Notes: a model not told the origin generated them from the letters alone. DNA of 64,000 bases from an uncultured virus (IMG/VR IMGVR_UViG_3300044637_001924) (IMGVR_UViG_3300044637_001924); one strand, 5' to 3'. Positions 3,071 through 43,531 are shown, numbered from the stretch's first letter. A program made the numbers and translations.

Positions 3071-3192
3071 CTACCTACAAGTGTTGGTCAAGTTCTCAAC
3101 AGCTTTTTAGTCTATTATAGGCAGATGAATCTTAAATTTTGGCAAAAATAGTCAATTTGCCTTATAATATCTTGAAGCTTCGAGGAACTAGA

Positions 3193-4125
3193 ATGACAAA
3201 AAAGATATTTTGGATAGACGGTGGTGCTGGTAGAGTAATCACCGCTATTCCTGCATTAATCAAATACGGTCGATTGCATCCCAACAGCGAATGGGCTGTG
3301 TTGGTTGGGGCATGGGATTTCTTATACTGGGGTATTCCCGAGCTGCAAGATCGCACCTACAATCTTGATACAAAAGGTGTTTTTGACAACGTAGTCAAGA
3401 ATGCTGATCAAATAGTAACCCCGGAGCCTTATCGTATCCCAGCATATTTTAGGCAAGAGATAAGTTTGGCTGAAGCTTTTGACAGGGAAATCAACCAAAC
3501 TACAGATCACAGTGATTTATTGCCACCACGCTTGGCATTCAATCAACAAGAAACTCTAGTAGCCAAGAATACCATAGCTGATCTCAAAAGTGTGAGCAAA
3601 AAGAACAAAACTATTGTATTTCAACCCTTTGGCCGTGGTGCCAAACTGGATCGTGCCACAGTGATTGACGAAGAAAGCAGAAGCTTAAGCTCAAACGACT
3701 ATTTGAGCCTGAGCCGGCGTCTTAATCAAAAATACAACATGATCTTTTTTGGCGAGCCTGACTTTCAATTGAAAGACGACAACTGGAGTGCCAAATACAC
3801 TGCTGATTTAAGAGTTTGGTCAGCTCTAGTTGCCAACTCTGACTATTTTGTAGGATGTGACAGTGTAGGCCAGCATATTGCTAGAGCCTCTGGAGTACCA
3901 GGCACAGTAATTATTGGGAGTACGTTTCCCAAGAACACCAGCTATCCAGATTACTTTCAAATAATTGAAAAGCCTGCTGCTAGGAAATATAGTCCTATTC
4001 GTATTGCTGGTCTGGACGTAAATCTCAGCAATAGGCTGAATGAAGGCACAATGAAATTCTCAACCAAAGAACTAGACGACATCTATCAAAAGATTGTTGC
4101 AGATATTGAAAGGAAAACACGCTGA
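3193..4125 (+). CDS. GT9-like (heptosyltransferase-fold) glycosyltransferase
   Basis: GGAGRVITAIPAL start; DYFVGCDSVGQHIARA C-terminal GT9-type motif; ATG at 3193 after GAGG; paralogue at 57650-58579. Confidence 0.7.
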   Translation: MTKKIFWIDGGAGRVITAIPALIKYGRLHPNSEWAVLVGAWDFLYWGIPELQDRTYNLDTKGVFDNVVKNADQIVTPEPYRIPAYFRQEISLAEAFDREINQTTDHSDLLPPRLAFNQQETLVAKNTIADLKSVSKKNKTIVFQPFGRGAKLDRATVIDEESRSLSSNDYLSLSRRLNQKYNMIFFGEPDFQLKDDNWSAKYTADLRVWSALVANSDYFVGCDSVGQHIARASGVPGTVIIGSTFPKNTSYPDYFQIIEKPAARKYSPIRIAGLDVNLSNRLNEGTMKFSTKELDDIYQKIVADIERKTR

Positions 4126-5822: not shown

Positions 5823-6230
5823 ATTTAAAAGAGTTTCACTTGAGCAGTGCGTTACCTGGAGCAGGTAGCCCACTGCTCAACAGCATAATTAAACAAAATC
5901 CAAAGTTCTCTGCCACTATAAGTGATCCTTTGCATAGTTTTGTGCACATCCTTATAAGAGACATCAACAGCCCTGTTGGTGTGGTTGCACAAATAACTTG
6001 AGATCGACGCCGGCAAATACTCACAATGAGTTTGATATTGGATAGCATACAGTCCAAAAAAAGTGGTCGCTACTACCAATTCTCCAAGAGACTTGACGAC
6101 TGTGTTGTAGGATCTGTAATTACCTTATGATTTTTTGGTAATGAAACAGCTTAGAATTACAAAATATCCTCTAGATTCACGCATATAGCAGATCTTTTAA
6201 CAAAAGTATGCAACACTGGAAGTTTCATAC
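5810..6230 (+). pseudogene. Degenerate sulfotransferase, decayed paralogue of 60391-61170
   Basis: FHLSSALPGAGSPLLNSIIKQNP...ISDPL aligns with YHMISGLPRSGSTLLSSILRQNP...ITDPL; TGA at 5999-6001; later fragments DRRR, LILDS and frameshifted ADLLTK/YATLEV match SRRK, WVLDS and PDILSQYSNMEV. Confidence 0.8.
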
Positions 6231-6252
6231 ACCTACAAGAAAGCAATTATAA

Positions 6253-7128
6253 ATGGCAGGCACCTTATATGGGATGATAACTGTTGCAAGCAGCAACCAA
6301 TATACACATGTAGCCCTTACAAGTTTTTTCAAACACACAAAATTATCTGCAGAAGATAGGTTTGTGTTGATTGACAACGACGGAGAATGGACTAAAAACT
6401 GGCATTTGGACTGTTTTGATCCCAACCTAGTATATGTGAATTCAAACCCTCAGAATTTTAGCACAAATATCAATCAATTGCTGAGATGGGCTGATGAACA
6501 ATATGCAGATTTAGTTTTCCTCAGCAATGATGTTGTTTTTACCCCCAAGTGGGCTACCCGTCTAGTGATAAATGACAGGACAGTGAGCATTCCCAGTTGT
6601 AATCAAACTCATTTTTATGGCTTTGACCCTACCTTAAATCTACAGCAATTTGGTGGTAGATTTCTACATTTGAATGTAGCTGCTCACACACATGCTGCAC
6701 GGTCACCAGCACCTTTTGAGCGCCTTCTCATGCCCACCTATGTATGTAGAATTCCACGTCTAATTTACCAAGAAGTTGGAGGCTTTGATGAAGCGTTCAA
6801 CATGGGAGGTGAAGATGTGGACTATAGATTGCGCCTACTTCAAAAAGGCTTTGAAATCAAATATTGCAGCAGTTATTTGCTACACTTCAACGGTTGCAGT
6901 AGTTGGAACGGGGCGGAAACCTTAGCTGAAACTCAACTGCGTAACCGGTTGTATATGCAAACTTTTATTGAGAAATGGGGAGAAGATTTACACGACTTGT
7001 GTATGAGTTCAGGACAACCAACATCTATTATTGAAAAATATCAATTACACGGGTTACTTAACGAATGCCGTTTCAACGACATAATAAAATCCTTGCTAAC
7101 TGCACTAGAGTTCAATAAAGTTATATAA
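6253..7128 (+). CDS. GT2-family glycosyltransferase
   Basis: LIDND, FLSNDV, VGGFDEAF..GGEDVDY..R motifs. Confidence 0.85.
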   Translation: MAGTLYGMITVASSNQYTHVALTSFFKHTKLSAEDRFVLIDNDGEWTKNWHLDCFDPNLVYVNSNPQNFSTNINQLLRWADEQYADLVFLSNDVVFTPKWATRLVINDRTVSIPSCNQTHFYGFDPTLNLQQFGGRFLHLNVAAHTHAARSPAPFERLLMPTYVCRIPRLIYQEVGGFDEAFNMGGEDVDYRLRLLQKGFEIKYCSSYLLHFNGCSSWNGAETLAETQLRNRLYMQTFIEKWGEDLHDLCMSSGQPTSIIEKYQLHGLLNECRFNDIIKSLLTALEFNKVI

Positions 7129-7131
7129 ATA
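7124..7131 (+). promoter_or_regulatory. T4-type late promoter TATAAATA
   Basis: Exact consensus upstream of AAGGAG RBS and ATG 7156. Confidence 0.75.
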
Positions 7132-7155
7132 TGTTATATCCAAGGAGAAAAAAAC

Positions 7156-7464
7156 ATGAGTGAGACAGTGGGATCAATTATTGATCCACAAACAATAACT
7201 ACTGAAATTGTTTTAAGTGAAAGAGTAGTAACAAATGAGTTTGTTATTGCTGAAATTTATGAAAGCATTGTGAACCGTTCTGTGCGGGCTGAGATTGAGC
7301 TTGGGCCATTTGTTACTGACACAAGACCAGATGGCAGCACGCAAACAAGAGGAAGCAGTCGTCGAGGGATTACAGTGTGGGACAATGATGCGTATGATGC
7401 TATAAGGGACACTTGGCGCAACGAAGATCTCATTACACGTATCAAGACCATTTTGAACGGATAA
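7156..7464 (+). CDS. Hypothetical protein, probably late-expressed
   Basis: Strong RBS, late promoter upstream, terminator downstream. Confidence 0.75.
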   Translation: MSETVGSIIDPQTITTEIVLSERVVTNEFVIAEIYESIVNRSVRAEIELGPFVTDTRPDGSTQTRGSSRRGITVWDNDAYDAIRDTWRNEDLITRIKTILNG

Positions 7465-13996: not shown

Positions 13997-14878
13997 TTAG
14001 GCGTAACTTCCAAATAAATGCAATTGCATATTAAAGACGAATCCGTTCTGGACACAATAACGAGCAGCGTGTTCGTGATTGGCTTGAGCAGTTTGCATAT
14101 TGATAAGCCCTGGCGTCCAAAAACTCACAACTTCATCCACAATACTGCGTTCTTCAAGACTAATTTGATTTTTCTCAGCTCGAATTTGCTTGCTTTTCTG
14201 CGGTTCATGGTTGTAAATGTTCATGGGACTTACAAACACCTTCTTACCAGTTTGGTCCCGCCAGTTGTGTGCCCAGTCAGGGACATTATTGTAAGGAGTA
14301 TCAGAATCTGCACTCATTACAAATTTCAAACAGTCTGCTCTTCCTAGCATTTCTGCTCGTGGTTCAAGATATTTCACCGGACGGCCATTTTTTTCACTGC
14401 ACTTGGGACTTACTACTAAGGTAGTTTCCTGAGGAATGTTCTGGACGATAGTGCCGTTGCTTTCAATTTGCGTTCGGGCAAACTGGGTATTCATATGCTC
14501 TAAAAATGGAACAATGTTTTTTTGTAGCATGGGCTCACCGCCAGTAAGCACGAGAACCATGTTGCGTTTCTTTACAGGATCACTTCCTGGACCCCCATAC
14601 ACAACATCAGCCCAAAGAGGGGTATTACCATTGAAGCTGTCAGAGATGCTCTTTGCGATTTTGGAGTCAATCTCTTGGATTGTCATCCAATCACCATCAT
14701 CAAAGAAAGTATCACAAAATGAACATTGGAGATTGCACTTGGCTAGCCTAACAAACACAGCAGGCTCGCCTCGATATGGGCCTTCTCCCTGAAATGTGGT
14801 GAAAATACTAGTTACAAAAAGTTCATCTTCTGCATTTTTGAAGTAACGTTCACCAACCAGCTCATTGCGTCCAAACAT
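13997..14878 (-). CDS. queE: 7-carboxy-7-deazaguanine synthase (radical SAM)
   Basis: IFTTFQGEGP..G.PAVFVRLAKCNLQCSFCDT (CxxxCxxC), TGGEP, IESNG, VSPK, QLH. Confidence 0.9.
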   Translation of the reverse strand: MFGRNELVGERYFKNAEDELFVTSIFTTFQGEGPYRGEPAVFVRLAKCNLQCSFCDTFFDDGDWMTIQEIDSKIAKSISDSFNGNTPLWADVVYGGPGSDPVKKRNMVLVLTGGEPMLQKNIVPFLEHMNTQFARTQIESNGTIVQNIPQETTLVVSPKCSEKNGRPVKYLEPRAEMLGRADCLKFVMSADSDTPYNNVPDWAHNWRDQTGKKVFVSPMNIYNHEPQKSKQIRAEKNQISLEERSIVDEVVSFWTPGLINMQTAQANHEHAARYCVQNGFVFNMQLHLFGSYA

Positions 14879-19329: not shown

Positions 19330-20010
19330 TTAGAGAGAGGTCAAGTCAACCATCTTCATAAATTCAGCACGAGCACTGGGATCCTGTTTGAACGCACCAC
19401 CCAGCTTGCTGGTAACTGTGCTGCTGCAATCATCTTCAACGCCACGATGACTTACGCAATAGTGCTTGCCGTGAATGACGACAGCAATGCTATCGGTTTC
19501 CAGGATATATTCCATTGCATGAAAGATCTGCTCAGTCAAACGCTCTTGAATTTGTGGTCGGCGGCTAAAGTATTCGACAATTCGATTGATCTTGCTTAGG
19601 CCCAATACCTTTTCTTTGGGAATATAAGCCACAGTTGCTACACCATCAATCACAATGAAGTGATGTTCGCAGGCACTTTTGACAGTGACATTTCGTTCAC
19701 ACACCATTTCATCATAGCCCATTTTGTTGGCAACAGTGGTGCACTTGGGGAAAGCTTCCCAATCAAGACCCCAAAAAAGTTCCTGGATAAACATGCGAGC
19801 CACTCGTGTCGGCGTTTCAGCCAAACTATCATCTGATAGATTCAAGCCCATTGTTTCCATGATGTCCTTGAACTTGCGTTCAATAATATCAATTTTGTCT
19901 GTGCGGCTTAGGGAATTTTCCACTGTTGGGGTTTCAACCCCTTTGGAAACTAGGTATTCATGTACTTTGCGACCCAGTTCAGGATCACATTTTGTGCGAT
20001 TATAGCTCAT
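19330..20010 (-). CDS. folE: GTP cyclohydrolase I
   Basis: ETPTRVA, SACEHHF, VLGLSKINRIV, RPQIQERLT, HYCVSHRGV. Confidence 0.95.
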   Translation of the reverse strand: MSYNRTKCDPELGRKVHEYLVSKGVETPTVENSLSRTDKIDIIERKFKDIMETMGLNLSDDSLAETPTRVARMFIQELFWGLDWEAFPKCTTVANKMGYDEMVCERNVTVKSACEHHFIVIDGVATVAYIPKEKVLGLSKINRIVEYFSRRPQIQERLTEQIFHAMEYILETDSIAVVIHGKHYCVSHRGVEDDCSSTVTSKLGGAFKQDPSARAEFMKMVDLTSL

Positions 20011-20085
20011 ATCTTTCCTTTCAAAGCATCTGTCGTTTATGCACAACGGGTGTTTCCACCAATTTGCTACCGTAATGTAGCAGAC

Positions 20086-31469: not shown

Positions 31470-32465
31470 TCAAACAACAATAAGGCTGCTGGCTTGGACT
31501 CCATTGTTATATCCAATGAGGGAGAATTCTTGTGTGCTCTGGGCTTGCCAAGGAGTTTTGAATCCAGTGTACTGGTTCAACATGCCTCCAACAGAAAAGT
31601 TAAATGACTCTTGGCTTGTTAAGGGGTTTTGGAAATTAGCTACGTCCTGGAATCTATAGCCCTCTTGTGTAGTGCTCCGCCAATTCAAAGCTGTGTCGTT
31701 GAACCAAACTGTAGATCCTGACAGTGCAACAATAGCTTCTTTGCCCAGTGTGGATCGGTATAATAACCGCGTAAATGGTTTGGATTTGCCTTGATCTTTT
31801 AAATTATCAAACAATGTCCATTCTGTGCTTGTGGTTTGAAAATCGTTGGTATAGGCTATCCAGCCTTTGCCGCCCAGCCAAACTTTTACACTACTTCCTA
31901 CGTGGGCTTCAATACTGTAAATACCGCCAGGGATAATATCTGGAAGTAGTATTCTTGTCCAAGAGTCAGTGTTGTCTTCACTATAGATTACCACAGGCTG
32001 TCGCAGATGATTTGTGCAGCCCACAGCAATCCATTTTCCTAGGCCCAAGTGTTTGATATCAAACAAAGTCATGGGTTCTTGATAACTGACAAATTTTCTG
32101 ACCCAAGTTGCTGGACCACCATTTCCAGACACTGCGACAAATCCAGTTTCTGCAAGGTTACTGAAGTTTTTTTCATGTCCCACAACTGTGAACAATCCTT
32201 GTCCCCATGTGATTTTGTTAACAAGCCAACTTTTGTTTTCAGGAGTGTAGGAATACCAATTTACACCATCACCACTTACTGTGAAGTCTCCAAAATTTGT
32301 AGCACCAACCCACGTATTGTTTCCATACGCCATGGATTGTATGCTGCCCAGTCCATTGACTGGACTATTGCCTGTAGTCCAGCCTAATTCATTGGTAGAG
32401 AAGGCATATAATGCCCTGCTGTACCACCGTGTGGGATCCATACCAAAACTATACAAAGTTGCCAT
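31470..32465 (-). CDS. Beta-propeller-like putative virion protein
   Basis: YGNNTWVG, SGDGVNW, YSEDNTDSW (BNR/Asp-box-like); TAAATA at 32473-32478. Confidence 0.6.
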   Translation of the reverse strand: MATLYSFGMDPTRWYSRALYAFSTNELGWTTGNSPVNGLGSIQSMAYGNNTWVGATNFGDFTVSGDGVNWYSYTPENKSWLVNKITWGQGLFTVVGHEKNFSNLAETGFVAVSGNGGPATWVRKFVSYQEPMTLFDIKHLGLGKWIAVGCTNHLRQPVVIYSEDNTDSWTRILLPDIIPGGIYSIEAHVGSSVKVWLGGKGWIAYTNDFQTTSTEWTLFDNLKDQGKSKPFTRLLYRSTLGKEAIVALSGSTVWFNDTALNWRSTTQEGYRFQDVANFQNPLTSQESFNFSVGGMLNQYTGFKTPWQAQSTQEFSLIGYNNGVQASSLIVV

Positions 32466-32471
32466 TTCAGC

Positions 32472-33587
32472 TTATTTAACCGAGGGAAATTTGCCATTGC
32501 TTTGAGTTTGAGGAGGAACTCCTCCTGCTGTGACTTTGTTGAGAAATTTCCGGGCTTGTTTTTGAACAGCATCAGGTCCCACATCGGTGGTAGTGTTCAC
32601 ACCTTTAACTATCTTGCCCACACCAGCTGTTTCGCCAAGACTGGGTTTGAGAATCAAGTAGCCATCTGTTCCTGGCGAGAGAGAGTAGGGAAAACTCTCT
32701 TGCTTGGTTACCCAAGTCCAACCCAGATGTCTTGCTAATTTTGGTGCCATACTCTTATAACGCTTTTTCCTGCTCGGGGCCCAAGCCTGGAACCAAAGTC
32801 CATTTACAGGTAAGGTTTTTTGATGATCAATAGCATACTTGAGAAGTTGAAACACAGCACTGAAGACTTTAAAGGCTGAACCTGTGCCACTTATGTCCAT
32901 GCCATACTCTGTGTGCCTAAATTCCACCTCGTAAATACCCCTCTTCTGAGGCTCTTGCAATCGAGACATTCGAAGCTCGTATTCGTTGCCATCAATTTCA
33001 AACAAAAAATCAATATAGCTGTCGCCTTCTGTTTTTATCTTCCATTTATCCCGGGGAAGTTGGTAATCAAAAGCCTCTTGCAATTTTGGTTGAACTATTG
33101 CACTGGGCTTATATACAACAAAGTCACTTGTGTCAAAATCAAAATATACTTTGGCACCAGCTCTCTGCGCCAACATTTGACCCAATGCGCTATAGAGCTT
33201 GTTCCTGCTGCCGCGTCCACCAATAAAAGTCAAGTAGTCCCATTCATGAGATCCAAGCCAACCAAAGAGGCGTCGCACCAATTCTTTCCACAAGGGTATG
33301 GCCTTAAGGCCCATTGTGCCAGTTTGTTCTATTTCCCCATCCACTGTCCATAACCAAACATAGCCCTTGGCTTGTGGATTGGGCTCTAAATCACTGGCAG
33401 CCAATGCATCCTGTAAGTCTTTTTGATTTTTATCTTGAGTAAGTCTTTGTTCGACTAAATGGTCATCATACTCAAAGCTTGTAATATATCTTGAAACTGA
33501 GCCCACATTGTCTTGTTGCCATTTGGTTGTCAATGGCTGATAAGCTTCTAGCAACTTCTTTAAGGGCACTAAATGGTAAATTCTCAT
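32472..33587 (-). CDS. Modular polyprotein C with two 'TG..A..F....SRxxxY' domains and a C-terminal module
   Basis: Modules bounded by KLLE/A, KLQE/A and SLGE/T. Confidence 0.75.
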   Translation of the reverse strand: MRIYHLVPLKKLLEAYQPLTTKWQQDNVGSVSRYITSFEYDDHLVEQRLTQDKNQKDLQDALAASDLEPNPQAKGYVWLWTVDGEIEQTGTMGLKAIPLWKELVRRLFGWLGSHEWDYLTFIGGRGSRNKLYSALGQMLAQRAGAKVYFDFDTSDFVVYKPSAIVQPKLQEAFDYQLPRDKWKIKTEGDSYIDFLFEIDGNEYELRMSRLQEPQKRGIYEVEFRHTEYGMDISGTGSAFKVFSAVFQLLKYAIDHQKTLPVNGLWFQAWAPSRKKRYKSMAPKLARHLGWTWVTKQESFPYSLSPGTDGYLILKPSLGETAGVGKIVKGVNTTTDVGPDAVQKQARKFLNKVTAGGVPPQTQSNGKFPSVK

Positions 33588-36478
33588 ACTTTTATAAGGT
33601 TTCCTTTGAGATCTGTGATAGTAATCCTATCAATACTTACAGGTGTTACCTGACAATTGGGCAGCAAATTATCTCTATCTGAAGGCTGCATGGTATCTAC
33701 TGGCATATATGCTCGTGCAGTTTTATCCTCAGGTGTTATTTCCCAACTTAAGATGTATTTGCCAAACCAATCATGCTCACCAACATCAAAAAATATAGCA
33801 ATAACTGGAGTGAAAGGATATTCCACAGTGCTATATCGGCCAAATTCTCTAGCACCAGTCTCATCATATTTTGGTTTCAGTCCGCCTGACTTTATTATAC
33901 TTGTAAGCTTATTGGTCATATGGTATACTCGCTGGCCCACAATACTTTTGCCTGGATATAAATTATATTGGGAATATTGCATGCCAGGCTCATACCAAAT
34001 ATTTGCTCCAGGACGCAAACCTTTGTAACTTAAACTTTCGTCCAAGTTAGTGAATGATGCAAGCTTGTCCTGCTTGACAATTGCAAAGCTTTTGTTAGTG
34101 TGCAACACTGTGCTATCAGCAGGTGCCAACTGTTTTGCCAGCCGGAGATAGAGCTTGTTGCGGCTGCGCTCATCCCCACTGAAGTTGATGTAGTCCCAGC
34201 TGTGGGTCTGGAAAAACCATTTGAGTTTTCGTATAATCAAATCAAATAATTGGGCACTTTTTTGGTCAAACATACCTGTTACAGAGATGCTGTGATCTAC
34301 AGAGAAGGACACTTCATATCCAACCCAGTTTTCTGGCACTTGCTTTTGCAAGATAGTTTGAAGCTCATAAGAAGCGTCTTTTACGACTGCTATTTGCACT
34401 TCACTGCCAGCAAATTCAAATTCAGTGTAGTGGGTTGAACCGCCCTTTATTGATTGCCAATCTCCAGGAAGTGGCTTGCCTTTAAAAACTTCATCCAGCT
34501 CTTGAGATTTTGCTGCCAACAAATGGTTTTTGATCAGCAGGAACCAATCTCCAAATTGCATTGGCTCTGAATCAAGTCCTGGAGATATCTGACTCAATAT
34601 TTTAGTATATACTCTTTGTCTACTGTCCCCAGCACCTGCGAAGACCAAATAGTCCCATTCTATATTTTGTAGTAGTCCTATGATTTTTCCTACAACAATT
34701 GAAATTACATTCGCTGCACCTGTGCCTAGTAAGCCTGTTGGATCAGTTTCGCCATCTACCCTGAATATTATTTCTCTGCCAACCAGGTTTGCTCCAGCCT
34801 CTATGTTTTTCTTCATCAACACATAGGCACCAGATTGGGCCCAATCCCGACTCACACTTATTGTGATCTTATATCCTTGAAGATCAAACTCTGTTTCAAA
34901 CATTTCTGCGTCGCCGCTTCCATATTTTTTCCAATCGCCTGGAATATGCTCACCACTTATGATTTCATCAACTCTAGTTGCTCCGCCGCAATGTTTGTTT
35001 TGAAACCAGTTGGCTTGGCGTTTGTCTAGAGTTGTAGCACCCTGGCGTGTTTTGAGTTTTTGTGTTTTGTCACATGTGACACCTCCGCCATACAGTCTGG
35101 TGATTTTGGATTTGAGAGTGCCAGGCGCACCTTTGCGCTCTGTTAACAATGTATCAACAGGCATTTTCTCCCAATGCAGCCATGCTGATGGTGCAACTTG
35201 GTTGTGCACACCAGGATCGTATTCTACAACCTTTCCTCGGTATATCTCCCTTATTTGATTCGCTGGTATAGAGCCTTTGACTCCCACTTCATGTGATCCT
35301 GTGCCTTGCACATGCACAATTTTTGATTCATCAGGTTTGGGCACTGCAATTACCCATGCTGGATTGTCCCAGTTGGCTTTTTGATTCCATGGTGCAAAAC
35401 TATGAGCATAAGTTTCAGCTGACCTGGGTTCAGTTGAAAAATAGGTTAAGCCCTGTTGCCCAGCCAAGTTATACTCGCCTTTGCTTTGTATCACTCCTGT
35501 TTTTTTGATATTTTGAAATTCATGATTACTCATGCCCCTATACACTAGGTTGGGATTTGGAGTTATGTTTAAATTGGCACGCAAATGAGATTTGGGAACA
35601 AGCTGATCTTTTACGGCGATGACTTTGCCATCATCGTCTTCAAGTGGGTCACTTTTGATGTCAAAATAATTGGGATCATATTCGCCCAATCTACCTCTCC
35701 AGGTTACACGGTATGTGTCTCTTTTGTTTTCATTTTCTTCTGAGAGACTTTTTTGAGTCTTTAACAGCAGTTCAAAAAACGGGCCAGATACACTAGTGTT
35801 TGCTCTCTGTGGTACAAGACGCAGGTTGAGTGCTTCAATCCATTCAGGTTTGATGTGCCTAGCACGCAATCCACCGACAAAAAACAAATGAGTTTCAACA
35901 GGTGCATCGCCTTCAGTTTCTAGGACCGCATACATTCTGTTGCGGCCTTCGTGCCCAATTACTCTTGCGGATTTATTATAACGACCTTTTTCCCATTCTA
36001 TTGGTATGTCTAAGACCAGCCAAGGACTGGCCATTCCCTGCCCTTGATCTAGTTGCTGTTTGATATAATCCACACTCCCAGCATGTTCTCTTGACAAAGG
36101 GCTAGCCAATTTCAAAAATACACTGGGCTTCATCGCGACTCTCAAGCCAAGATAATCCACATTCTTATTGTCAGGCACTTCCCCAATGCCACTCACATTG
36201 TCGATTTTTACTTCATTTAGCAGGGCAAACAGCTCTATCAGAAGAGCTTCTTGAGCAGGCTTTTTCTCAAGTTTGCTCAATTTCTTGTAATAGTTAAGAT
36301 CCTCACCCAAGTGATCCAAGGCTATTTCTCGCGCCACACTCCGCAACCGGGTGTGTTCCATCTCCACTTTGATGCCCTGTGCCAGCTGTTTCTCCACAGA
36401 GTCTGTTGACACTTTGTATTTTTTAGCCAGCTCAGCTACGCTACTGGTAGGCTTGTTCAATAGGTCATTCAGTTTCAT
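33584..36478 (-). CDS. Modular polyprotein B: DUF5661-like, ParB-like, ART-like, small basic module, two SRxxxY domains, second ART-like domain
   Basis: GIKVEMEH..IALDHL.E...YY; GHEGRNR; YRG..YFST..HEV; VYHMT..I..GGL.P; linkers LLNE, LSEE, LLTE, RVDE, ELDE, NLDE. Confidence 0.8.
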   Translation of the reverse strand: MKLNDLLNKPTSSVAELAKKYKVSTDSVEKQLAQGIKVEMEHTRLRSVAREIALDHLGEDLNYYKKLSKLEKKPAQEALLIELFALLNEVKIDNVSGIGEVPDNKNVDYLGLRVAMKPSVFLKLASPLSREHAGSVDYIKQQLDQGQGMASPWLVLDIPIEWEKGRYNKSARVIGHEGRNRMYAVLETEGDAPVETHLFFVGGLRARHIKPEWIEALNLRLVPQRANTSVSGPFFELLLKTQKSLSEENENKRDTYRVTWRGRLGEYDPNYFDIKSDPLEDDDGKVIAVKDQLVPKSHLRANLNITPNPNLVYRGMSNHEFQNIKKTGVIQSKGEYNLAGQQGLTYFSTEPRSAETYAHSFAPWNQKANWDNPAWVIAVPKPDESKIVHVQGTGSHEVGVKGSIPANQIREIYRGKVVEYDPGVHNQVAPSAWLHWEKMPVDTLLTERKGAPGTLKSKITRLYGGGVTCDKTQKLKTRQGATTLDKRQANWFQNKHCGGATRVDEIISGEHIPGDWKKYGSGDAEMFETEFDLQGYKITISVSRDWAQSGAYVLMKKNIEAGANLVGREIIFRVDGETDPTGLLGTGAANVISIVVGKIIGLLQNIEWDYLVFAGAGDSRQRVYTKILSQISPGLDSEPMQFGDWFLLIKNHLLAAKSQELDEVFKGKPLPGDWQSIKGGSTHYTEFEFAGSEVQIAVVKDASYELQTILQKQVPENWVGYEVSFSVDHSISVTGMFDQKSAQLFDLIIRKLKWFFQTHSWDYINFSGDERSRNKLYLRLAKQLAPADSTVLHTNKSFAIVKQDKLASFTNLDESLSYKGLRPGANIWYEPGMQYSQYNLYPGKSIVGQRVYHMTNKLTSIIKSGGLKPKYDETGAREFGRYSTVEYPFTPVIAIFFDVGEHDWFGKYILSWEITPEDKTARAYMPVDTMQPSDRDNLLPNCQVTPVSIDRITITDLKGNLIKV

Positions 36479-39400
36479 TAGGATCTTCTTCAAGGTTGCG
36501 GATTTTTTTCACCGTTGTAGTAGGCTTTCCCCAAGGTTCCGGCCAGCGTTGCGTAAATTTCAGCCTCACATTGGCTGCAGGAATTGGCTTGTAGATGACC
36601 CATGCATCGTAATCGTGCTGAATATCCAATGCTGGATCAGGAGTTAGATCATTGGGATCTTGAACCTTGATTTCCCATATATCCATACTCTCGCCCTCAT
36701 CTTGACTCCAATAGTAAGCCCAATCTTCAGCTTGTTCAAAAGTTTCAAACAGAAACACACCTGGTTGTCGCAATATATGATCATGTTCCTTTGTTTTGGG
36801 AACAAGTCCTCTCTGGCGTATGCTCAAACGGTTTCTTGTTCTTGTGACATGATAGAGTTTAGTGGGCAGTGGCTCATCTCCCTGCCCGAGCCACGGGGCA
36901 GCTTCTGAGACCTGGTCTTTGTTTAAATCTAGTAACATCACAGGATACCCAGTTGAACTGCGAGCTATTTCTTTGAAGTCATAAGACTTATACCATTTCT
37001 CAAGTTGTGATTGTCTTTTGGGATCATCTGAGACAGCAGTGAGAATGACAGCATGAGCCTGGTTGTCTATTGCATCCCCAATACCAGCCTCTAAAATCCA
37101 GCTACCTACTCCAGACCCTTGATGATCTTCCTCGACCCATATGTTTTTGAACACAGCTATTGTTTTGTATCTGCGTTGCAATTTTTCTGCAAGGTCGGCG
37201 GGTGCATTTTCACTTGCAAGATAATTGACCAATTGTGGGGTAGATGTATCAGTTATGTAGGCTTCGAGACCTCCATGTTCCTCTTGTTGATCAATGCTTA
37301 TGCTTTCATTTGTCTTGCTCTTGCCCCAGTTTTTTGCACCCTTTTTCCTGCACTGCACTAATGCACCGCTGGCATAGGCACTGGGCCAAACTTTGTAGCG
37401 ACTCTTGACTTTGTAGTAGCAGGCATCTTGTTTTTCACTGAGCATAGAGTAGTTAACCATTTGGCCTCCGCAATGTGGACAACTGGAGTTTTCTTTCAGC
37501 TCATGCTCTGTCAAAGCCAGTTGTATGTTTTTCACATCTTCTGTGCGTATGTGCACAAGATTGCTCATGCCCATGCTTCGACTGTTCCAATAGCCTTGGT
37601 TGTGGAGATGCATCATCATATAGTAGAGATATTCTGGCATCAGCTGTTCAGTAGCTGTGACTTTGATTCCAATATGATAGGGACTGAATTCTTTGGCTGG
37701 TGTGCCCACATTTGTTCTATCACTGCGTCGCACAAGCCAAAAGTCAGCATCAGGAAAATTAGTTTTGATAGTGCAGAGATCTCCCAATTTTGTAGAGCCA
37801 ACACTTTCTTTTGTGGCTACGTTCCGGGCCTTGCCTTCACGTTCAGGATTGGGATCTTCTCTACGCTTGCGCCTAGCAGCAGTTGCACGTTTTTTCTTGC
37901 CCAGTGCCCAAGCCTTCCGCTGTGGCAGGCATTTGGGCTTGCCTTCGCCTTCACTGCCTCTAGCACAGTCGCCTCTGATCTTGCCATCTGTCCCAAATCG
38001 CACCCATTTTTGTTTGAACCAATCACGCAAGCTTTCATCCAAATATTGCGCTTCCCAATCCATGAAGTTTTCAGCAAATTTTTGGCACCGTTCTCGTATG
38101 TTTGTATCAGCAGTAACCATAATATTGAAAGTGCGTTGACTTTGGGATTGAGTTGTATCAGAGTAGCCGCAATAGACTTTTTTGACAGGACTCTTGTTGA
38201 TTAGGTCAGTACAACTTTCACCATATCTTGGCATCTGCTCGCTGCATGGACTGCATGTGGTTACAATTATACAGCCATCAGGTATGCTTCCGTATTTTTT
38301 ACGATAAGCCCTCATAGCCAATCGTTCAGCATGATACCATTTGTCATTGGCAAATGTGCTGAAACCTATTACAAGACGGTTGCGGGGATCCAACAACCCT
38401 GCGGCTACCCATCCGTATTTGTCAGGGTTTTTCTTTCGTCTGGTGTCAACTAGGTTACACAATGCAACTAAGATGCGATCCAGCTTTTTATAGTTGTGTA
38501 TTTCTACGTTATTGTTTTCATTCAAGGGCTTGCTAGTTGTCTTTCCGCCCTTTTGTCGTTTGCGTCTAGCAGCACAGTGAGCACGTTGGCTGAACCCTTG
38601 AGGATTAGAGCAGTTGATACTCTTCTTATACTTTTTGGTCCATTTTTCCTCAACAACAGAGGGATTGCCATTCTCTATACCACTAGATTCCCACTTGCGG
38701 AAAAGAGGATGGTCAACACTTTTGGGACTGTAGACTTCCATGCTGCGATAGGCATAGTCGTTGCCACCCAAGTATTGCACATACCCTCTCAAAGCCCAAG
38801 CGCCCATGGCAGGTGCAGCACTGTGGTGAGTATAATGTTCGCTATCCGCAGCCACAACACTGCCATCTTTGTAGATCACAAATCTGGCACTGTGATACTT
38901 GTTGTTGCGTGCCAACCTTTTCAAATCTTGAATTGTGGGATTTTTGTGAACCATACGCTGGTCTTCATCAGTCCAAGCTTCTTCCAACTTCTTTCCCATT
39001 TGGACTAAACTGGTGCCTGTAAATGGGTTGTTTGATCCTCTGTTCTCCACATCGTAACCCAGCTTGTGATAAAAGCCTTCGCTTTCCCATTTGGCCTCTA
39101 CGACGCTCTTGGTGGCCCCTTTGTTCTTTGCGATAGTCAAGGCTTGTAACATCAACGCTTTGCCAGCACCAGGTTTGTTGTCATAACTGCCCAACCATTT
39201 CACATGCGCCACTTGATTTTCAATCACCACATGTATTGCAGTTACACTGAACACGCCTAGATCTGGGGTATAGTTATAGAGGAAAATGCTATTTTTTCCC
39301 AAGTTGGGATTGTCAAGTGCTCGTAAGTTATTTTTAACCACATAAGCAACAGCCTCTAGGGCTTTGAAATCCTTGTCAAGTTTTTCATACTTTGGTCCCG

Positions 39401-40193
39401 CAGCATCATAGCTGGCGTCGTTAATCTCTTCTTGCTCATATGTGATTGCACCCAATAAGTCTTCTAGATCTGCGCGATCCAGTTGATTAGCTGATTCCTC
39501 AAGAGGTAAGTTCCAATAACCAGTTCCTTGATCTTGAAATCCCATCTTCTCATAAAATTTGTGGCTGTTCCAGATGGGTTTCACAACAGCGAGTAAGGCA
39601 CCTTGTTTCTGGCTTTGTGCTAACCCCTGCTCCAAAAGTTGCCTACCAGTGCCATTCAAACTACCTAACCAAGTGATTTTTGCTGTCTTGTTGTCGAGCA
39701 GTATGTGCAATGCACTTTGGCAACCTTCAGTGTAGAGCCAAATGCTGTTGTTACCTAGTTGTGGATCGTTTTCAAAAAGCTTCTGTGATTCCAAAACGTG
39801 ACTGATGGCACGCAAGGCTCGATAGGCTTTGCTTTGCGTTCCCAGTTGACTGCTTGCCGTCGTTAGCTGGCGAGAAATTTGTTCGTTGTAGGTTTGCATC
39901 AGTGTCCCACAAGAAGTGAGAACAGCTATAGTTGGTGATGTATGGGGTGTTGTAGAGCGAGAATCAAACACTATATCCTTGGCTGGATCTTTGTAGATAG
40001 AGGTTGTTATATATCCTGATTGCAGGATATTAGGCGCATTGTCTAGTATAGTGCTATGATAGAGTTCACTGGGATTATTTTTTGACTCTTCCGGCTTGTC
40101 ATTCTTTGGGTCAGTGTCTTCCCACTGGCTGAACACACTGGGTTTTTGATTCTGTTGGTCCTCCTTGTTTTCCAAAATATCAACCAGCTTCAT
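36465..40193 (-). CDS. Modular polyprotein A: three GNAT domains, deaminase, HsdS-like domain, ART-like domain and small basic Cys modules
   Basis: GTGRQLL..FYEKMGF; GAGKALM..FYHKLGY; QGSGVG..WYKSYDF; HAE..SPCS; LYHVT..RGL.P..GVFL; linkers PLEE, KLEE, VVEE, PLNE, YLDE, ELKE, MLSE, QVSE. Confidence 0.85.
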   Translation of the reverse strand: MKLVDILENKEDQQNQKPSVFSQWEDTDPKNDKPEESKNNPSELYHSTILDNAPNILQSGYITTSIYKDPAKDIVFDSRSTTPHTSPTIAVLTSCGTLMQTYNEQISRQLTTASSQLGTQSKAYRALRAISHVLESQKLFENDPQLGNNSIWLYTEGCQSALHILLDNKTAKITWLGSLNGTGRQLLEQGLAQSQKQGALLAVVKPIWNSHKFYEKMGFQDQGTGYWNLPLEESANQLDRADLEDLLGAITYEQEEINDASYDAAGPKYEKLDKDFKALEAVAYVVKNNLRALDNPNLGKNSIFLYNYTPDLGVFSVTAIHVVIENQVAHVKWLGSYDNKPGAGKALMLQALTIAKNKGATKSVVEAKWESEGFYHKLGYDVENRGSNNPFTGTSLVQMGKKLEEAWTDEDQRMVHKNPTIQDLKRLARNNKYHSARFVIYKDGSVVAADSEHYTHHSAAPAMGAWALRGYVQYLGGNDYAYRSMEVYSPKSVDHPLFRKWESSGIENGNPSVVEEKWTKKYKKSINCSNPQGFSQRAHCAARRKRQKGGKTTSKPLNENNNVEIHNYKKLDRILVALCNLVDTRRKKNPDKYGWVAAGLLDPRNRLVIGFSTFANDKWYHAERLAMRAYRKKYGSIPDGCIIVTTCSPCSEQMPRYGESCTDLINKSPVKKVYCGYSDTTQSQSQRTFNIMVTADTNIRERCQKFAENFMDWEAQYLDESLRDWFKQKWVRFGTDGKIRGDCARGSEGEGKPKCLPQRKAWALGKKKRATAARRKRREDPNPEREGKARNVATKESVGSTKLGDLCTIKTNFPDADFWLVRRSDRTNVGTPAKEFSPYHIGIKVTATEQLMPEYLYYMMMHLHNQGYWNSRSMGMSNLVHIRTEDVKNIQLALTEHELKENSSCPHCGGQMVNYSMLSEKQDACYYKVKSRYKVWPSAYASGALVQCRKKGAKNWGKSKTNESISIDQQEEHGGLEAYITDTSTPQLVNYLASENAPADLAEKLQRRYKTIAVFKNIWVEEDHQGSGVGSWILEAGIGDAIDNQAHAVILTAVSDDPKRQSQLEKWYKSYDFKEIARSSTGYPVMLLDLNKDQVSEAAPWLGQGDEPLPTKLYHVTRTRNRLSIRQRGLVPKTKEHDHILRQPGVFLFETFEQAEDWAYYWSQDEGESMDIWEIKVQDPNDLTPDPALDIQHDYDAWVIYKPIPAANVRLKFTQRWPEPWGKPTTTVKKIRNLEEDPNETE

Positions 40194-40818
40194 TTACAGG
40201 CTCCACATGTGTCATATAGCTGTCATCTGTATAAAAGTCCACAGCGTTCTCCACACTGTAGACTGTCATGTCTATTTGATACCCAGGATTACTGGTTATA
40301 GGATTTTTCACCCAAGCATTGTCATGCCAAATGATTCTATTGTTGGGATAAAGATAATAGTTTCCTTCATCCATTTTGAACAAATGCGCGCATTTGTGTT
40401 CAGGCGTTTCACTGAAATTGGTGTCAGTAAAAGCAGAGTTTTCCCAACCCCAGTCTAAAGTCATACAGTATTGTCCTTGACGACGTTCCCCAGTGTAAAC
40501 CAACAACGTAGCCCTTAACCCCGCCATGCGTTGCCGGACCTGCACATCAATATAATGACTGAAACAGTCCCAATAAACATGTTCTGCAAGTGGTCTTACT
40601 GGTGCATCATTACGCCAACAAAAAGCAGTTATGGGTCGACGTGTCCAGTTCACTCCATTTTCCAAAAATGCTTCAAATAAAGGCGTGCGTTTCTCCATAC
40701 TTGCGACACTGTGTACATCACAGGGAGTGAACTCGCCGTGGCCTTTGGTGTGATTGTAAAGGTATTGGTTACGTATTAGGCATGTTAAAACGGGGATATT
40801 ATGATTCAAATATGGCAT
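40180..40818 (-). CDS. Conserved phage hypothetical protein
   Basis: ATG at 40818 directly after ATAAATA (40823-40829); WDCFS, EHKCAH, PNNRI blocks. Confidence 0.75.
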   Translation of the reverse strand: MPYLNHNIPVLTCLIRNQYLYNHTKGHGEFTPCDVHSVASMEKRTPLFEAFLENGVNWTRRPITAFCWRNDAPVRPLAEHVYWDCFSHYIDVQVRQRMAGLRATLLVYTGERRQGQYCMTLDWGWENSAFTDTNFSETPEHKCAHLFKMDEGNYYLYPNNRIIWHDNAWVKNPITSNPGYQIDMTVYSVENAVDFYTDDSYMTHVEPVNEAG

Positions 40819-40914
40819 AGTATATTTATTGTCTGGACAGTGAGCACAATACAAAGGCAGTAAACATGAGAATTGGATTGCAACCCTCCAGAAATTTGTT
40901 GCATAATCAAAATT

Positions 40915-41646
40915 ATGACCCAATTATTGATTTTTAGCGGCGCTGGTTTGAGTGCTGAAAGCGGCATCCCCACATTTAGAGAAGATAGCGAAGGTTTATG
41001 GAGCCGTTATGATCCATTGGTTTACAGTAATTACGCCACTTGGCGACAAAACTTTCAAATTGTAAATGAATTTCACAGCGACTTACGGGAAATGCTTCTG
41101 AAGTTTCAGCCAAACGCCGCCCACAAACAGGTGGCAGAATGGCAGAGAAAATACAGTGCAACAGTGATAACTCAAAATGCAGACCTCTTGCTAGAGGAGG
41201 CTGGTTGCATCCCTGTTGTGCATGTTCACGGACAGCTGGATGAAATGCAATGCGAAAACTGTGGCCATGTTTGGAATATTGGCTACACTCGATACAACAT
41301 CTCCCTAGGTTGTCCCAATTGCCAAAGCCTGACTGATGTCAAGCCTGCGGTAGTGTTGTTTGGTGAACCAGCACCCAAATACCAATATCTCTACAACACA
41401 CTGGACAGCCTTACAGACAAAAGCCTGTTCCTGTGTATTGGAACATCAGGCTCAGTTGTTCCTGTTGATAACTTCGCAAAAGTGTTGGATTGTCCTAGTG
41501 TAATCAACGTGTTAAATTTAAATCGGGACATTGACGGCTACTTGCCTCCGATAGTTCCTTCTCACTGGACTCACTGCCTATTAGGGCCTGTAACTCAACA
41601 ACTGCACAAAATAGACAAGATCTTACAAGAGCATTTTGGTTTCTAA
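40915..41646 (+). CDS. cobB: Sir2-family NAD-dependent deacylase
   Basis: FSGAGLSAESGIPTFR, PNAAH, ITQNAD, HVHG, two CxxC, KPAVVLFGE, IGTSG. Confidence 0.92.
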   Translation: MTQLLIFSGAGLSAESGIPTFREDSEGLWSRYDPLVYSNYATWRQNFQIVNEFHSDLREMLLKFQPNAAHKQVAEWQRKYSATVITQNADLLLEEAGCIPVVHVHGQLDEMQCENCGHVWNIGYTRYNISLGCPNCQSLTDVKPAVVLFGEPAPKYQYLYNTLDSLTDKSLFLCIGTSGSVVPVDNFAKVLDCPSVINVLNLNRDIDGYLPPIVPSHWTHCLLGPVTQQLHKIDKILQEHFGF

Positions 41647-41679: not shown

Positions 41680-42258
41680 ATGAAAATTCAAGACCTTACG
41701 CAACCTTTGAATGAAAGTGTAAATCAAGCCATTCAATGGCACCAGGATAACAAAGTTCCGCTAGTTGATAACATATTCCGTATTCACAGCCCAGCTTGGT
41801 TTGAGTTTTTTTGTGAGATGCGACGTCGTGTTTCTTGTGGAGATATACTCTTGGAACACGCTCTTGACCAGGACATGATTGAGAGTGATTTAGGCACGTT
41901 TGGTGTGTATGAAGGCAGAATGGTTCCGTTGGATTGTATTTTTGAAACTCCAGAAAGTCTTGATGAGGCTGAGTATCAAGGAAAAGCTGTTGAGCTTAAC
42001 AAGCCCAAGAGAGGCGGTCCTAAAAAGTATTACGTCTACGTCAAGAATCCCAAAACAGGCAGGGTCAAAAAAATTGCCTTTGGTGATGTGTCAGGTTTGA
42101 GTGTTAAAATCCGCGATCCCAAACGACGCAAAGCGTTTGCTTCTCGTCACAACTGTGAACAAAAAACAGACAAAATGAAGGCTGGATACTGGGCGTGTAG
42201 AGTTCCCCGCTATACTAAATCCTTGGGATTGAGTCCAATTAGTGCCAAATGGTGGTAA
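41680..42258 (+). CDS. Two-module putative head protein
   Basis: TAAATA 41644-41649; MKIQDL..PLNE leader; SLDE/AEYQG..basic module ending RHNC..AGYWAC. Confidence 0.75.
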   Translation: MKIQDLTQPLNESVNQAIQWHQDNKVPLVDNIFRIHSPAWFEFFCEMRRRVSCGDILLEHALDQDMIESDLGTFGVYEGRMVPLDCIFETPESLDEAEYQGKAVELNKPKRGGPKKYYVYVKNPKTGRVKKIAFGDVSGLSVKIRDPKRRKAFASRHNCEQKTDKMKAGYWACRVPRYTKSLGLSPISAKWW

Positions 42259-42540: not shown

Positions 42541-43128
42541 TTACTTACCTTGAACCAGTGGGCTGATAACAGAGTTTGGTGCCAACACTCGATAAACGCT
42601 TGACCTATTGATCTTAAGCCGCCTTGCGATCTCACTTGCACCAACCCCTTGGGATTTTAGTGACTGAATCTCAGCCAGCTGCCTGCGTGCTGTTGGCGCC
42701 CTGCCCTTGTAGCGCCGCTCTGCCTTTGCCTTGGCGATGCCCTCTCGCTGCCGCTCAAGCATCATTTGACGCTCAAACTCTGCTACTGCGCCTAAAACAG
42801 TCAGCATCAACTTGGATATTGCATTTCGTGTGTCTAATTCCATGCCGTTCATGCTCTGCACTATTAGGCCAATTTCTCGCTTTTCCAAATCTTCTACAAT
42901 TTTGAGAAGATCTGATGTACTTCGAGCCAACCGGTCTACTCGTGTAACCATAAACACATCTTTTTCACGAATATATGACATCGCTGCGGTGAGCTGCGGT
43001 CTACTTCCAACAGCACTGGTTTGTTCTGCGAAGATTTTTTCACACCCAGCCTGTTGCAATGCTGCAATTTGAGATTCTAGACTTGCGGATTGTTCATGTG
43101 TGCTAGTCCTTGCATAACCTATAAGCAT
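42541..43128 (-). CDS. Serine recombinase (resolvase/invertase) with C-terminal HTH
   Basis: IGYARTST, RPQL, VDRLARS, AEFER, ERQREGI, GR, IARRLKINRSSVYR. Confidence 0.93.
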   Translation of the reverse strand: MLIGYARTSTHEQSASLESQIAALQQAGCEKIFAEQTSAVGSRPQLTAAMSYIREKDVFMVTRVDRLARSTSDLLKIVEDLEKREIGLIVQSMNGMELDTRNAISKLMLTVLGAVAEFERQMMLERQREGIAKAKAERRYKGRAPTARRQLAEIQSLKSQGVGASEIARRLKINRSSVYRVLAPNSVISPLVQGK

Positions 43129-43150
43129 TACTTTTTCCTTATAATATAAT

Positions 43151-43531
43151 TCAGCTATTGAGGTCAGGAGCTTCGCGTTCAAACTCCTTGATATTCCAAG
43201 CTTTCACCCCAAAATATTCCTGCAACAGCTTGAGCACAATATTGGAATCAAAGTCCTTACAAGAAAACACGTCTAGGTGAAGTGTCCAAGTGTGAGGTAC
43301 AAAATGACATACAATAGCCGATGTAGTAATAAGTTGCACAGCACTGATACCAGCTTTAGTAACATCGTGGTCTGCGAACCAATGAATCTCTGGTCGACCA
43401 AATGCAATCATATCAATATCGTTAACCAGTTGGTCAACCCATTTGGTTACAGTCTCTTTGTCGTTGATGGCTTCATTGCACCCTGCTGCATCGACGACCA
43501 AATGTTTGCCCCAGCTTGGTAGGTTTTTCAT
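43151..43531 (-). CDS. speD: S-adenosylmethionine decarboxylase proenzyme-like
   Basis: GKHLVVDA, GIS...ITTS.I..HF, LDVFSCK; late promoter upstream. Confidence 0.8.
   Translation of the reverse strand: MKNLPSWGKHLVVDAAGCNEAINDKETVTKWVDQLVNDIDMIAFGRPEIHWFADHDVTKAGISAVQLITTSAIVCHFVPHTWTLHLDVFSCKDFDSNIVLKLLQEYFGVKAWNIKEFEREAPDLNS

Follow-up and report, generated by a model that had tools for sequence, protein, structure and literature searches.

In bacteriophage T4, the internal proteins IPI, IPII and IPIII and the protein Alt are small basic or enzymatic cargo, made with a short N-terminal leader that ends in hydrophobic-x-Glu. The prohead protease gp21 cuts after L/I-X-E and removes propeptides of 7-65 residues; the first 10 residues of IPIII suffice for loading, and processing is set by residues 8 and 10 of the capsid-targeting sequence (CTS), with Asp at position 10 blocking it (PMC9026906). 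In the polyvalent proteins of phages and conjugative elements, effector domains of very different kinds (GNAT, ART-like, ParB-like, deaminase) are joined in a single chain, which is presumed to travel with the DNA (Iyer et al. 2017, PMC5512222). The present analysis concerns three consecutive genes, named P1, P2 and P3 after their products, on a 64,000-base stretch of DNA (the window) from the uncultured virus IMGVR_UViG_3300044637_001924. Their products carry T4-like leaders in front of chains of modules.

The window comprises bases 1631-65630 of a 180,697-base viral record (G000), which was judged 44% complete. The source is a giant phage with T4-type core genes, and the family-B DNA polymerase of the record is nearest to that of Agrobacterium phage Atu_ph07 (46.7%) and of Rak2-like phages. 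The three consecutive open reading frames (ORFs) described in an earlier annotation of this DNA (the original prediction) were found as follows, with overlaps of 14 bases between P1 and P2 (P2 taken from the ATG) and 4 bases between P2 and P3.

36465-40193, minus strand: P1, 1242 amino acids
33584-36493, minus strand: P2, 969 amino acids from a TTG start, 964 from the ATG at 36478
32472-33587, minus strand: P3, 371 amino acids

The explanation favored here, with a probability of roughly 65%, is that P1-P3 are capsid-targeted polyproteins, which would be cut at their joints by the prohead protease to give about 20 small proteins that travel with the DNA.

N-terminal leaders

Proteins related to P1-P3 are numerous (at least 234 long and 938 shorter ones). 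Two sets were studied: a first set of 152 proteins (P1-P3 and homologues), compared all against all by BLAST, and a second, independent set of 119 further, shorter homologues, about 270 proteins in total.

The leaders of P1 (MKLVDILE/, where the slash marks the joint), P2 (MKLNDLLNKPTSSVAE/) and P3 (MRIYHLVPLKKLLE/) show the T4-type propeptide feature, i.e. about 7-19 residues with an L/I-x-E end. The corresponding T4 leaders, read from NC_000866, are MKTYQEFIAE/A for IPII and IPIII, and MKTFKEFTSTTTPVSTITE/A for IPI. The three leaders, described earlier as alike, resemble T4 CTS sequences. In the homologues the leaders are stereotyped, with 8-16 residues and the motif most often ending at residue 8 (examples are MKLxDLFE/, MNLFDLLE/, MKAKEFITE/ as in MKAKEFITE/KWSQKYK, and MSSILKGIVDE/). 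An early [LIVM]xE (within the first 30 or 25 residues) was present in 97 of 122 distinct Met-starting N-termini of the first set and 81 of 93 of the second.

Modules that are internal in P1-P3 directly follow a leader in other proteins, as in MKIRDLLTE/KWS..., MKANEFVTE/NLRNWFKEKW... and MRISDIIE/TAGVGRV.... The last of these, the module of P3 320-371, stood directly behind a leader in all nine new instances, and the module of P1 406-516 also does so elsewhere (MRLVDLFE/ARFQEI...).

Outside the window, a 109-amino-acid ORF (G000:C1:82438-82767, minus strand) starts with MRAKEFIRE/, which is close to the T4 CTS, and may encode another capsid-targeted protein.

Joints between modules

All 17 four-letter joint motifs listed in the original prediction are present, at module-scale spacing. 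Their position is strongly non-random. With breakpoints defined as peaks of local-alignment starts in the first set, [LIVM]xE was found within 4 residues of 299 of the 641 non-redundant peaks, compared with 2139 of 12820 random positions (17%), and the controls were flat at the same peaks ([LIVM]xD 60, xQ 70, xK 63). The comparison of boundaries with positions elsewhere, which had been proposed as a check, thus came out in favor of enrichment at homology breakpoints.

The pattern was sharpest in three module families, A (P1 517-559), B (P1 721-796) and C2 (beginning KQDAC). In the following, site P1 is the residue before the module and site P3 lies two residues further upstream. For module A, Glu occupied site P1 in 83/84 instances and L/V/I/M occupied site P3 in 81/84 (first set), with 82/82 and 81/82 in the second set. 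The values for module B were 79/79 and 74/79, then 72/72 and 71/72, and those for C2 were 81/81 and 81/81, then 74/74 and 74/74. Pooled over the three families, Glu was found at site P1 in 243/244 and 228/228 instances, Asp was never seen there, and sites P2 and P4-P8 were variable. The upstream partner differed from the one in protein P1 in 80 of 84 instances of A and 73 of 79 of B. Nine other module families retain the motif as well (6/7, 6/8, 16/18, 6/7, 13/14, 17/18, 15/16, 9/9 and 16/16).

These counts bear on the reading that P1-P3 belong to the classical polyvalent proteins as described by Iyer et al. (2017) and are packaged and delivered intact, with the [LIVM]xE joints being flexible linkers or leader relics of fused genes. 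Many unrelated effector domains in one phage polypeptide would agree with this, and P2 254-452 is 45.6% identical to part of the 'large polyvalent protein' of Planktothrix phage Pag-Yong1, which carries LPD38. Some polyvalent proteins are packaged unprocessed, e.g. the N4 virion RNA polymerase (PMC5512222), and the P2 joint ELFALLNE/VKIDN, which mirrors the leader MKLFDLLNE/VKIDN of relatives, looks like a fossil of that leader. A linker or a fossil would drift, however, yet the Glu at site P1 is nearly invariant in both sets and is never replaced by Asp, and site P3 stays hydrophobic while the sites around it vary. Of the polyvalent features, several unrelated effector domains are present in P1-P3, but a Pfam search of the three proteins at E <= 0.1 gave no LPD, metallopeptidase or other peptidase family. 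In addition, in the one homologue read from cyanophage S-RIM2 (a 456-amino-acid chain of such modules) module B is preceded by DSS, not LxE, indicating that the motif is not needed for the fold of module B. Intact delivery is therefore considered unlikely.

The AlphaFold2 (AF2) models suggest that the joints of the proposed polyproteins, conserved in motif, are also accessible. The predicted local distance difference test score (pLDDT) was below 50 at P2 1-12, 76-114, 245-274, 505-507, 662-666 and from 815 onwards, and these dips contain or abut the joints VAE21, LLNE94, LSEE253, RVDE510, ELDE668 and NLDE819. In P1, dips at model residues 472-476 and 510-521 correspond to P1 514-518 (VVEE) and 552-563 (PLNE). 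The predicted deaminase fold (P1 564-719) falls between PLNE559 and YLDE720, ending one residue before the Glu of YLDE.

When 626 module starts were grouped by single linkage to count independent families, 463 of them ended up in a single cluster, linked through the small basic modules; a per-module table was used instead.

Prohead protease and relatives in cultured phages

A second viral record (G001, 328,603 bases) encodes P1 and P2 at 100% identity. It contains a gp21-type Peptidase_S77 gene (PF03420, 79.7 bits) between genes for an acidic core-like protein and a scaffold-like protein. A gp23-type capsid protein gene comes next after this region, and the propeptide of its product ends AGILFE/NATPG, shortly before the Pfam Gp23 match. 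In the same head module (L036, G001:228000-246000), three paralogous genes at 4345-7274 have the starts MPKLLDNR, MPRLLDNR and MPKLLDKR and collagen-like Gly-Pro-rich repeats.

S77 is also present in Pseudomonas phage PA5oct, Ralstonia phage RsoM2USA and S-RIM2. PA5oct gp135 (141 amino acids) is a stand-alone copy of the GNAT-fold repeat found in P2 and P3; it begins MHLFELFDQIE/ and is annotated 'structural protein, ESI-MS/MS'. RsoM2USA_385 (165 amino acids) is a stand-alone copy of the P2 95-253 module, begins MQTFKQFLSE/ and lies about 3.7 kb from the S77 gene of that phage. The S-RIM2 homologue is encoded between the genes for the small terminase and a virion structural protein.

Several observations weigh against cleavage of the chains by a prohead protease. 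No S77 gene was found in the window's own, 44% complete record, and among seven related viral records, all incomplete, S77 occurred in three (G001, G005, G006), and not in G000, G002, G003 and G004. The genes for P1-P3 adjoin a DNA polymerase gene, outside the head module. The overall enrichment of [LIVM]xE is modest (48 in 2577 amino acids vs 34.8 +/- 5.1 in shuffles, of which 7/1000 reach 48; 0.0186 per residue in P1-P3 vs 0.0140 in the 128 remaining long ORFs of G000), and the short motif also occurs inside folded domains, e.g. VLE and LFE in GNAT 1. Most of the statistical weight comes from the three homologous families A, B and C2, whose Glu could be part of the module itself because neighboring residues are equally invariant. 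The motif had been claimed for almost every boundary, and nearly every joint does carry it, but it is missing at 796 (ATKE/S, with ATKE conserved in 5/5 and LxE in 0/5), at 963 (KTNE/S) and at the P1 80/81 boundary, and the joints before P1 406 (7/15), P1 902 (13/24), P2 453 (7/19) and P2 22 (5/17) are weaker. Moreover, the motif itself was one guide in placing the module borders, confidence is low over about half of each AF2 model, and the MAFFT alignments used as input consist of mosaic proteins.

Gene context and promoter motif

The locus consists of five tightly packed genes, all on the minus strand, with overlaps of 14, 14 and 4 bases and one gap of 6 bases. A DNA polymerase gene lies downstream of the operon and a divergent Sir2 gene upstream. 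A megablast search of the region against cultured phages gave no match. The other features of the locus are listed below.

40823-40829, minus strand: ATAAATA motif (AATAAATA), 4 nucleotides before the ATG at 40818
40180-40818, minus strand: gene for 212 amino acids, first of the operon; phrog_3704, no Pfam family, no leader; its end overlaps the P1 start by 14 nucleotides
31470-32465, minus strand: gene for 331 amino acids, last of the tight cluster; unassigned, no leader
40873-41646, plus strand: gene of the Sir2 family (128.9 bits in Pfam), immediately upstream of the operon
41680-42258, plus strand: divergent gene for 192 amino acids with a MKIQDLTQPLNE/ leader, an SLDE/ joint and a basic module; phrog_7595 on residues 93-175
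42541-43182, minus strand: serine recombinase/invertase gene, just upstream of the operon

The 192-amino-acid product seems to belong to the same class as P1-P3, as a small member with two modules. Elsewhere in the window, QueE-like radical SAM and GTP cyclohydrolase genes (13997-14878 and 19330-20046, minus strand) have glycosyltransferase genes and a carbamoyltransferase gene (1500-5822) near them, which suggests a DNA modification of the 7-deazaguanine type.

The original prediction had placed a late-promoter motif at 40823-40829. ATAAATA is indeed present there on the minus strand, within AATAAATA, which is one base off the T4 motif TATAAATA, but 'late' is an assignment made by analogy with T4. 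In the 180.7-kb record, 22 of 25 copies (e.g. at window positions 7125, 20092, 43578 and 40829) have the start of an ORF of at least 60 amino acids within 60 nucleotides downstream, compared with 310 of 714 copies of 20 other A5T2 heptamers. The 25 copies are fewer than the 55 or so that a rough estimate from composition predicts. In the head module of G001, ATAAATA stands before the portal gene and before orf7942. It behaves as a genuine element upstream of genes, and by analogy it may be a late promoter.

Exact TATAAATA was rejected as evidence, as its 13 copies in 180.7 kb (about 18 estimated) are no more than chance; the window has 3 copies (1.14 expected, and 12 of 100 shuffled sequences have at least as many). 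The head module of G001 has a single copy, not before a head gene: it precedes one of two endonuclease-like ORFs that lie right after the capsid gene (L036, 12930-15505, minus strand). Scans for sigma-70 promoters and terminators gave nothing above shuffles.

The gene neighborhood is one argument for another explanation, namely that P1-P3 function in the cytoplasm, as multi-enzyme proteins of the early or middle phase that are not part of the virion, and that their joints are in-frame recombination sites for the shuffling of cassettes or the sites of some other protease. The three genes share their strand with the neighboring DNA polymerase and other replication and metabolic genes, and module order is heavily shuffled among relatives. 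However, no fixed DNA motif was found at the joints, where six different Leu codons are used and the Glu codon is GAA in 18/21 cases (95/143 elsewhere, p 0.08); such variation argues against a DNA-level recombination site here, and the joint is preserved as peptide, not as DNA. The match of the leaders to T4 CTS sequences also speaks against a cytoplasmic role, as do the virion annotation of the PA5oct homologue, the position of the S-RIM2 homologue and the proximity of RsoM2USA_385 to an S77 gene. The genes for P1-P3 are beside a DNA polymerase gene, yet the motif in front of their operon is shared with the G001 portal gene. A purely cytoplasmic role is thus quite improbable.

Module composition

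The modules of P1-P3 are given below by position in the window, with residue numbers of the protein. Fractions are the homologous instances that carry the joint motif.

40170-40193, minus strand: P1 leader MKLVDILE/, residues 1-8; 8 is the commonest leader length among homologues
39954-40169, minus strand: P1 9-80, low-complexity N-terminal piece, unassigned; pLDDT about 30, 2 homologous instances
39495-39953, minus strand: P1 81-233, GNAT 1, ends PLEE/; Pfam FR47, 27.9 bits vs cut-off 22.1; AF2 confident over 85-205
38979-39494, minus strand: P1 234-405, GNAT 2, ends KLEE/; Pfam Acetyltransf_10, 38.9 vs cut-off 23.6; joint motif 6/7
38646-38978, minus strand: P1 406-516, no assigned family, ends VVEE/; folded, pLDDT 57-87; joint motif 7/15
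38517-38645, minus strand: P1 517-559, small basic Cys module A (KWTKKYKKSINC...), ends PLNE/; flanked by AF2 dips
38034-38516, minus strand: P1 560-720, Zn deaminase of TadA/CDA type, ends YLDE/; Pfam dCMP_cyt_deam_1 at 586-676, and fold
37806-38033, minus strand: P1 721-796, basic Cys module B (SLRDWFKQKWVRFG...), whose ATKE/ end lacks LxE
37491-37805, minus strand: P1 797-901, unassigned, ends ELKE/; AF2 low confidence
37305-37490, minus strand: P1 902-963, CPHCGG zinc-ribbon piece, MLSE/, then a DUF5872-like module (KQDACYYKV...SAYASGALVQCRKKG); DUF5872 match weak
36903-37304, minus strand: P1 964-1097, GNAT 3, ends QVSE/; Pfam Acetyltransf_7, 51.9 bits vs cut-off 27
36468-36902, minus strand: P1 1098-1242, possible ART/Tpt1-like module; weak PTS_2-RNA match, AF2 low confidence there
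36431-36493, minus strand: P2 leader (from the ATG at 36478: MKLNDLLNKPTSSVAE/); the ESM Atlas has the protein from residue 6
36212-36430, minus strand: P2 22-94, DUF5661 helical domain, ends LLNE/; Pfam 44.2 bits, above cut-off; AF2 pLDDT 83-96
35735-36211, minus strand: P2 95-253, GHEGRNR module (possibly ParB/Srx-like), ends LSEE/; AF2 confident over 115-244
35138-35734, minus strand: P2 254-452, module in common with the 'large polyvalent protein', ends LLTE/; AF2 not confident
34964-35137, minus strand: P2 453-510, small basic helical module, ends RVDE/; AF2 confident 456-504, dip 505-507; joint motif 7/19
34490-34963, minus strand: P2 511-668, predicted GNAT-fold repeat R1 (WDYLVF...SR..VY), ends ELDE/; dip 662-666; joint motif 13/14
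34037-34489, minus strand: P2 669-819, predicted GNAT-fold repeat R2, ends NLDE/; weak Pfam DUF6934; joint motif 17/18
33587-34036, minus strand: P2 820-969, C-terminal module, unassigned; few homologues, AF2 low confidence
33546-33587, minus strand: P3 leader MRIYHLVPLKKLLE/, from sequence
33075-33545, minus strand: P3 15-171, predicted GNAT-fold repeat R3, ends KLQE/; 33% identity to P2 673-795; joint motif 15/16
32631-33074, minus strand: P3 172-319, repeat R4, ends SLGE/; 38% identity over 74 amino acids to PA5oct gp135; joint motif 9/9
32475-32630, minus strand: P3 320-371, small C-terminal module (TAGVGKIVKGVN...); joint motif 16/16

The three GNATs and the Zn deaminase that had been named in P1 were confirmed. 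The Pfam GNAT spans (residues 187-227, 342-402 and 1012-1075) are all above cut-off. The deaminase scores 38.7 bits (PF00383, cut-off 25), has the HAE (HAERLAM) and PCxxC (CSPCSE) zinc motifs, and its predicted fold is close to those of tRNA-specific deaminases and RibD-type enzymes (VIA search, P1 564-719: Z 15.0, root mean square deviation (rmsd) 2.9, 139 residues aligned). The small basic Cys modules are likewise real, and very widespread among homologues. A search of P1 against PDB sequences gave weak deaminase and GNAT matches only, searches with P2, P1 797-901 and P2 95-253 gave nothing useful there, and NCBIfam added nothing beyond Pfam for P1-P3. The stretch LYHSTILDNAPNILQSGYI (P1 43-80, 39954-40067) is loosely like the starts LYHVTRTRNRLSIRQRGL and VYHMTNKLTSIIKSGGL of C-terminal modules, and may be a truncated remnant of such a module.

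Other assignments fared less well. Instead of at least three ART-like domains there is one weak Tpt1/KptA match (PTS_2-RNA, 16.1 bits, below the cut-off of 26, at P1 1106-1140; NCBIfam E 0.019). The C-terminal modules of P1 and P2 showed no similarity by BLASTP, so that three such domains are not backed, and the PARP match of a homologue (P0002, E 1.3e-5) lies in another module than P1 1098-1242. In the ESM Atlas, P2 254-452 gave only leads of 0.90 or less, including a weak PARP lead (16% of a cluster, score 0.88). An HsdS-like domain, proposed for P1 797-901, had no match in Pfam, NCBIfam or PDB sequences, and the model is not confident there. For the ParB-like domain, P2 95-253 had no Pfam match, and the hints are weak and structural: rows named ParB/Sulfiredoxin among the viral models of BFVD stand at rank 1 (E 3e-17, a 1096-amino-acid polyprotein) and rank 32 (134 amino acids, TMt 0.49), with aligned ranges not given. 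Proteins of Atu_ph07 were also among the structural matches of this search. The ParB_N matches in homologues fall in a different module.

The modules had been described as unrelated, which holds only in part: P2 511-668, P2 669-819, P3 15-171 and P3 172-319 are paralogous repeats with a predicted GNAT fold. When the two P2 repeats were folded by AF2, nearly all structural matches were GNATs, both in a Foldseek-based second look and in the Foldseek-independent VIA search (Z 5.8-8.2, about 100-120 residues aligned; best for R1, with Z 8.2, rmsd 3.7 and 111 aligned). By fold match at Z 5.8-8.2, the GNAT fold of the repeats is likely but not certain. With the whole P2 model, Foldseek retrieved nothing from PDB at E <= 0.001. 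VIA said little about the other modules, since GNAT or deaminase domains took up its match lists.

A prohead core or scaffold-like filler, cut up and expelled before DNA packaging like T4 gp22, gp67 and gp68 so that nothing is delivered, would share the leader and multi-site logic of T4 core proteins that are cut into several fragments (PMC9026906), and DUF5661 also occurs inside the DUF2213 head protein of Vibrio phage VPs20 (scaffold/protease region, between the terminase and the DUF2184 capsid gene), but the modules have whole enzyme folds that carry their catalytic motifs (HAE and PCxxC in the deaminase; the GNATs score above their Pfam cut-offs), as would hardly be expected of disposable filler, and the PA5oct homologue is annotated as present in mature virions, which makes this explanation highly implausible.

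Proposed mechanism and significance

The leaders, joints, breakpoints, S77 gene and stand-alone homologues support the original proposal of capsid cargo, whereas packaging, cleavage, ejection and any function in host takeover or anti-defence are inferred. In the proposed pathway, the operon would be transcribed from the ATAAATA promoter, and each leader would take the complete chain behind it into the core of the prohead. The S77 protease encoded by the phage would then remove the leader and cut the joints, giving about 20 separate small proteins inside the head, which would exit together with the DNA to act in the cell just infected. The kit would comprise three canonical GNATs, four GNAT-fold repeats, a TadA-like Zn deaminase, DUF5661, small basic Cys peptides and four unassigned modules, with the possible ParB/Srx-like and ART/Tpt1-like modules as tentative members.

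A broader reading, put forward tentatively and judged less probable than its negation, is that P1-P3 belong to an open combinatorial cargo-cassette system of giant phages with T4-type core genes. A leader of CTS type in front, or [LIVM]-x-Glu joints on both sides, would be enough for any small domain to be packed into the head and then freed as a separate protein by the maturation protease, and module shuffling could rebuild the chains freely. The kit is dominated by seven modules with a known or predicted GNAT fold and the TadA-like deaminase, whose nearest structural look-alikes include tRNA-acetylating toxins and tRNA deaminases. This might point to injected proteins that attack or protect the translation machinery of the host in the opening seconds of infection. 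A shared fold with tRNA-acting enzymes does not show function.

If the polyprotein explanation is correct, the heads of a large class of uncultured giant phages carry dozens of different pre-made enzymes, and a very large family of mosaic 'hypothetical proteins' is explained. A simple sequence rule would predict virion cargo and its mature ends, and capsid targeting of the T4 type, which has already served to bring foreign proteins into T4 heads, would extend to multi-protein payloads. What phages inject besides DNA would become directly testable, through proteomics of cultured relatives such as PA5oct, RsoM2USA and Atu_ph07.

Comparison with known systems

T4 CTS cargo and polyvalent proteins are each already known. 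No description of protease-jointed cargo chains was found in full-text literature searches (which covered few subscription journals), and the available portions of a 2021 overview of jumbo phages and a 2022 survey of NAD and ADP-ribose (NAD/ADPr) do not describe them.

As in eukaryotic RNA viruses, a viral protease would split one translation product into many working proteins; the likeness is no more than an analogy, since the protease, the domains and the purpose (replicase vs virion cargo) differ. A polyprotein strategy so far known from RNA viruses would here be carried out by a capsid maturation protease, not by an embedded peptidase.

The inner-body and ejection proteins of phiKZ, 201phi2-1 and SPN3US are similar in that many head-internal proteins of these giant phages are cut after Glu at short motifs, sometimes at multiple sites, and ejected into the host, the proteases (gp175/gp245) being diverged gp21 homologues (PMC9026906, PMC10052503, PMC5694885). 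That cargo consists of paralogous structural and ejection proteins with propeptides in a different phage lineage, and not of shuffled enzyme cassettes. The phiKZ-type cleavage motif is S/A/G-x-E.

With the polyvalent proteins, P1-P3 share the assembly of disparate effector domains in one polypeptide. The release of these domains has been proposed to proceed via embedded metallopeptidase domains, or not at all (PMC5512222), whereas P1-P3 have instead a maturation-protease motif and leaders resembling the T4 CTS; in Iyer et al. (2017), 'prohead protease' appears in a reference title only.

In leader and proposed cargo type, P1-P3 are like T4 IPI, IPII, IPIII and Alt. As in T4, where ipI-III lie among non-structural genes, the genes for P1-P3 are outside the head cluster, and a gp21-type protease is encoded in the near-identical record G001. 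A tblastn search of P1, P2 and P3 against 50,697 phage records returned no T4 or T-even record, and the mature parts are without sequence similarity to T4 proteins. Unlike in T4, where a cargo gene gives one mature protein, one leader here heads 3 to 12 chained modules, with cut-site motifs between them, as read from the sequence.

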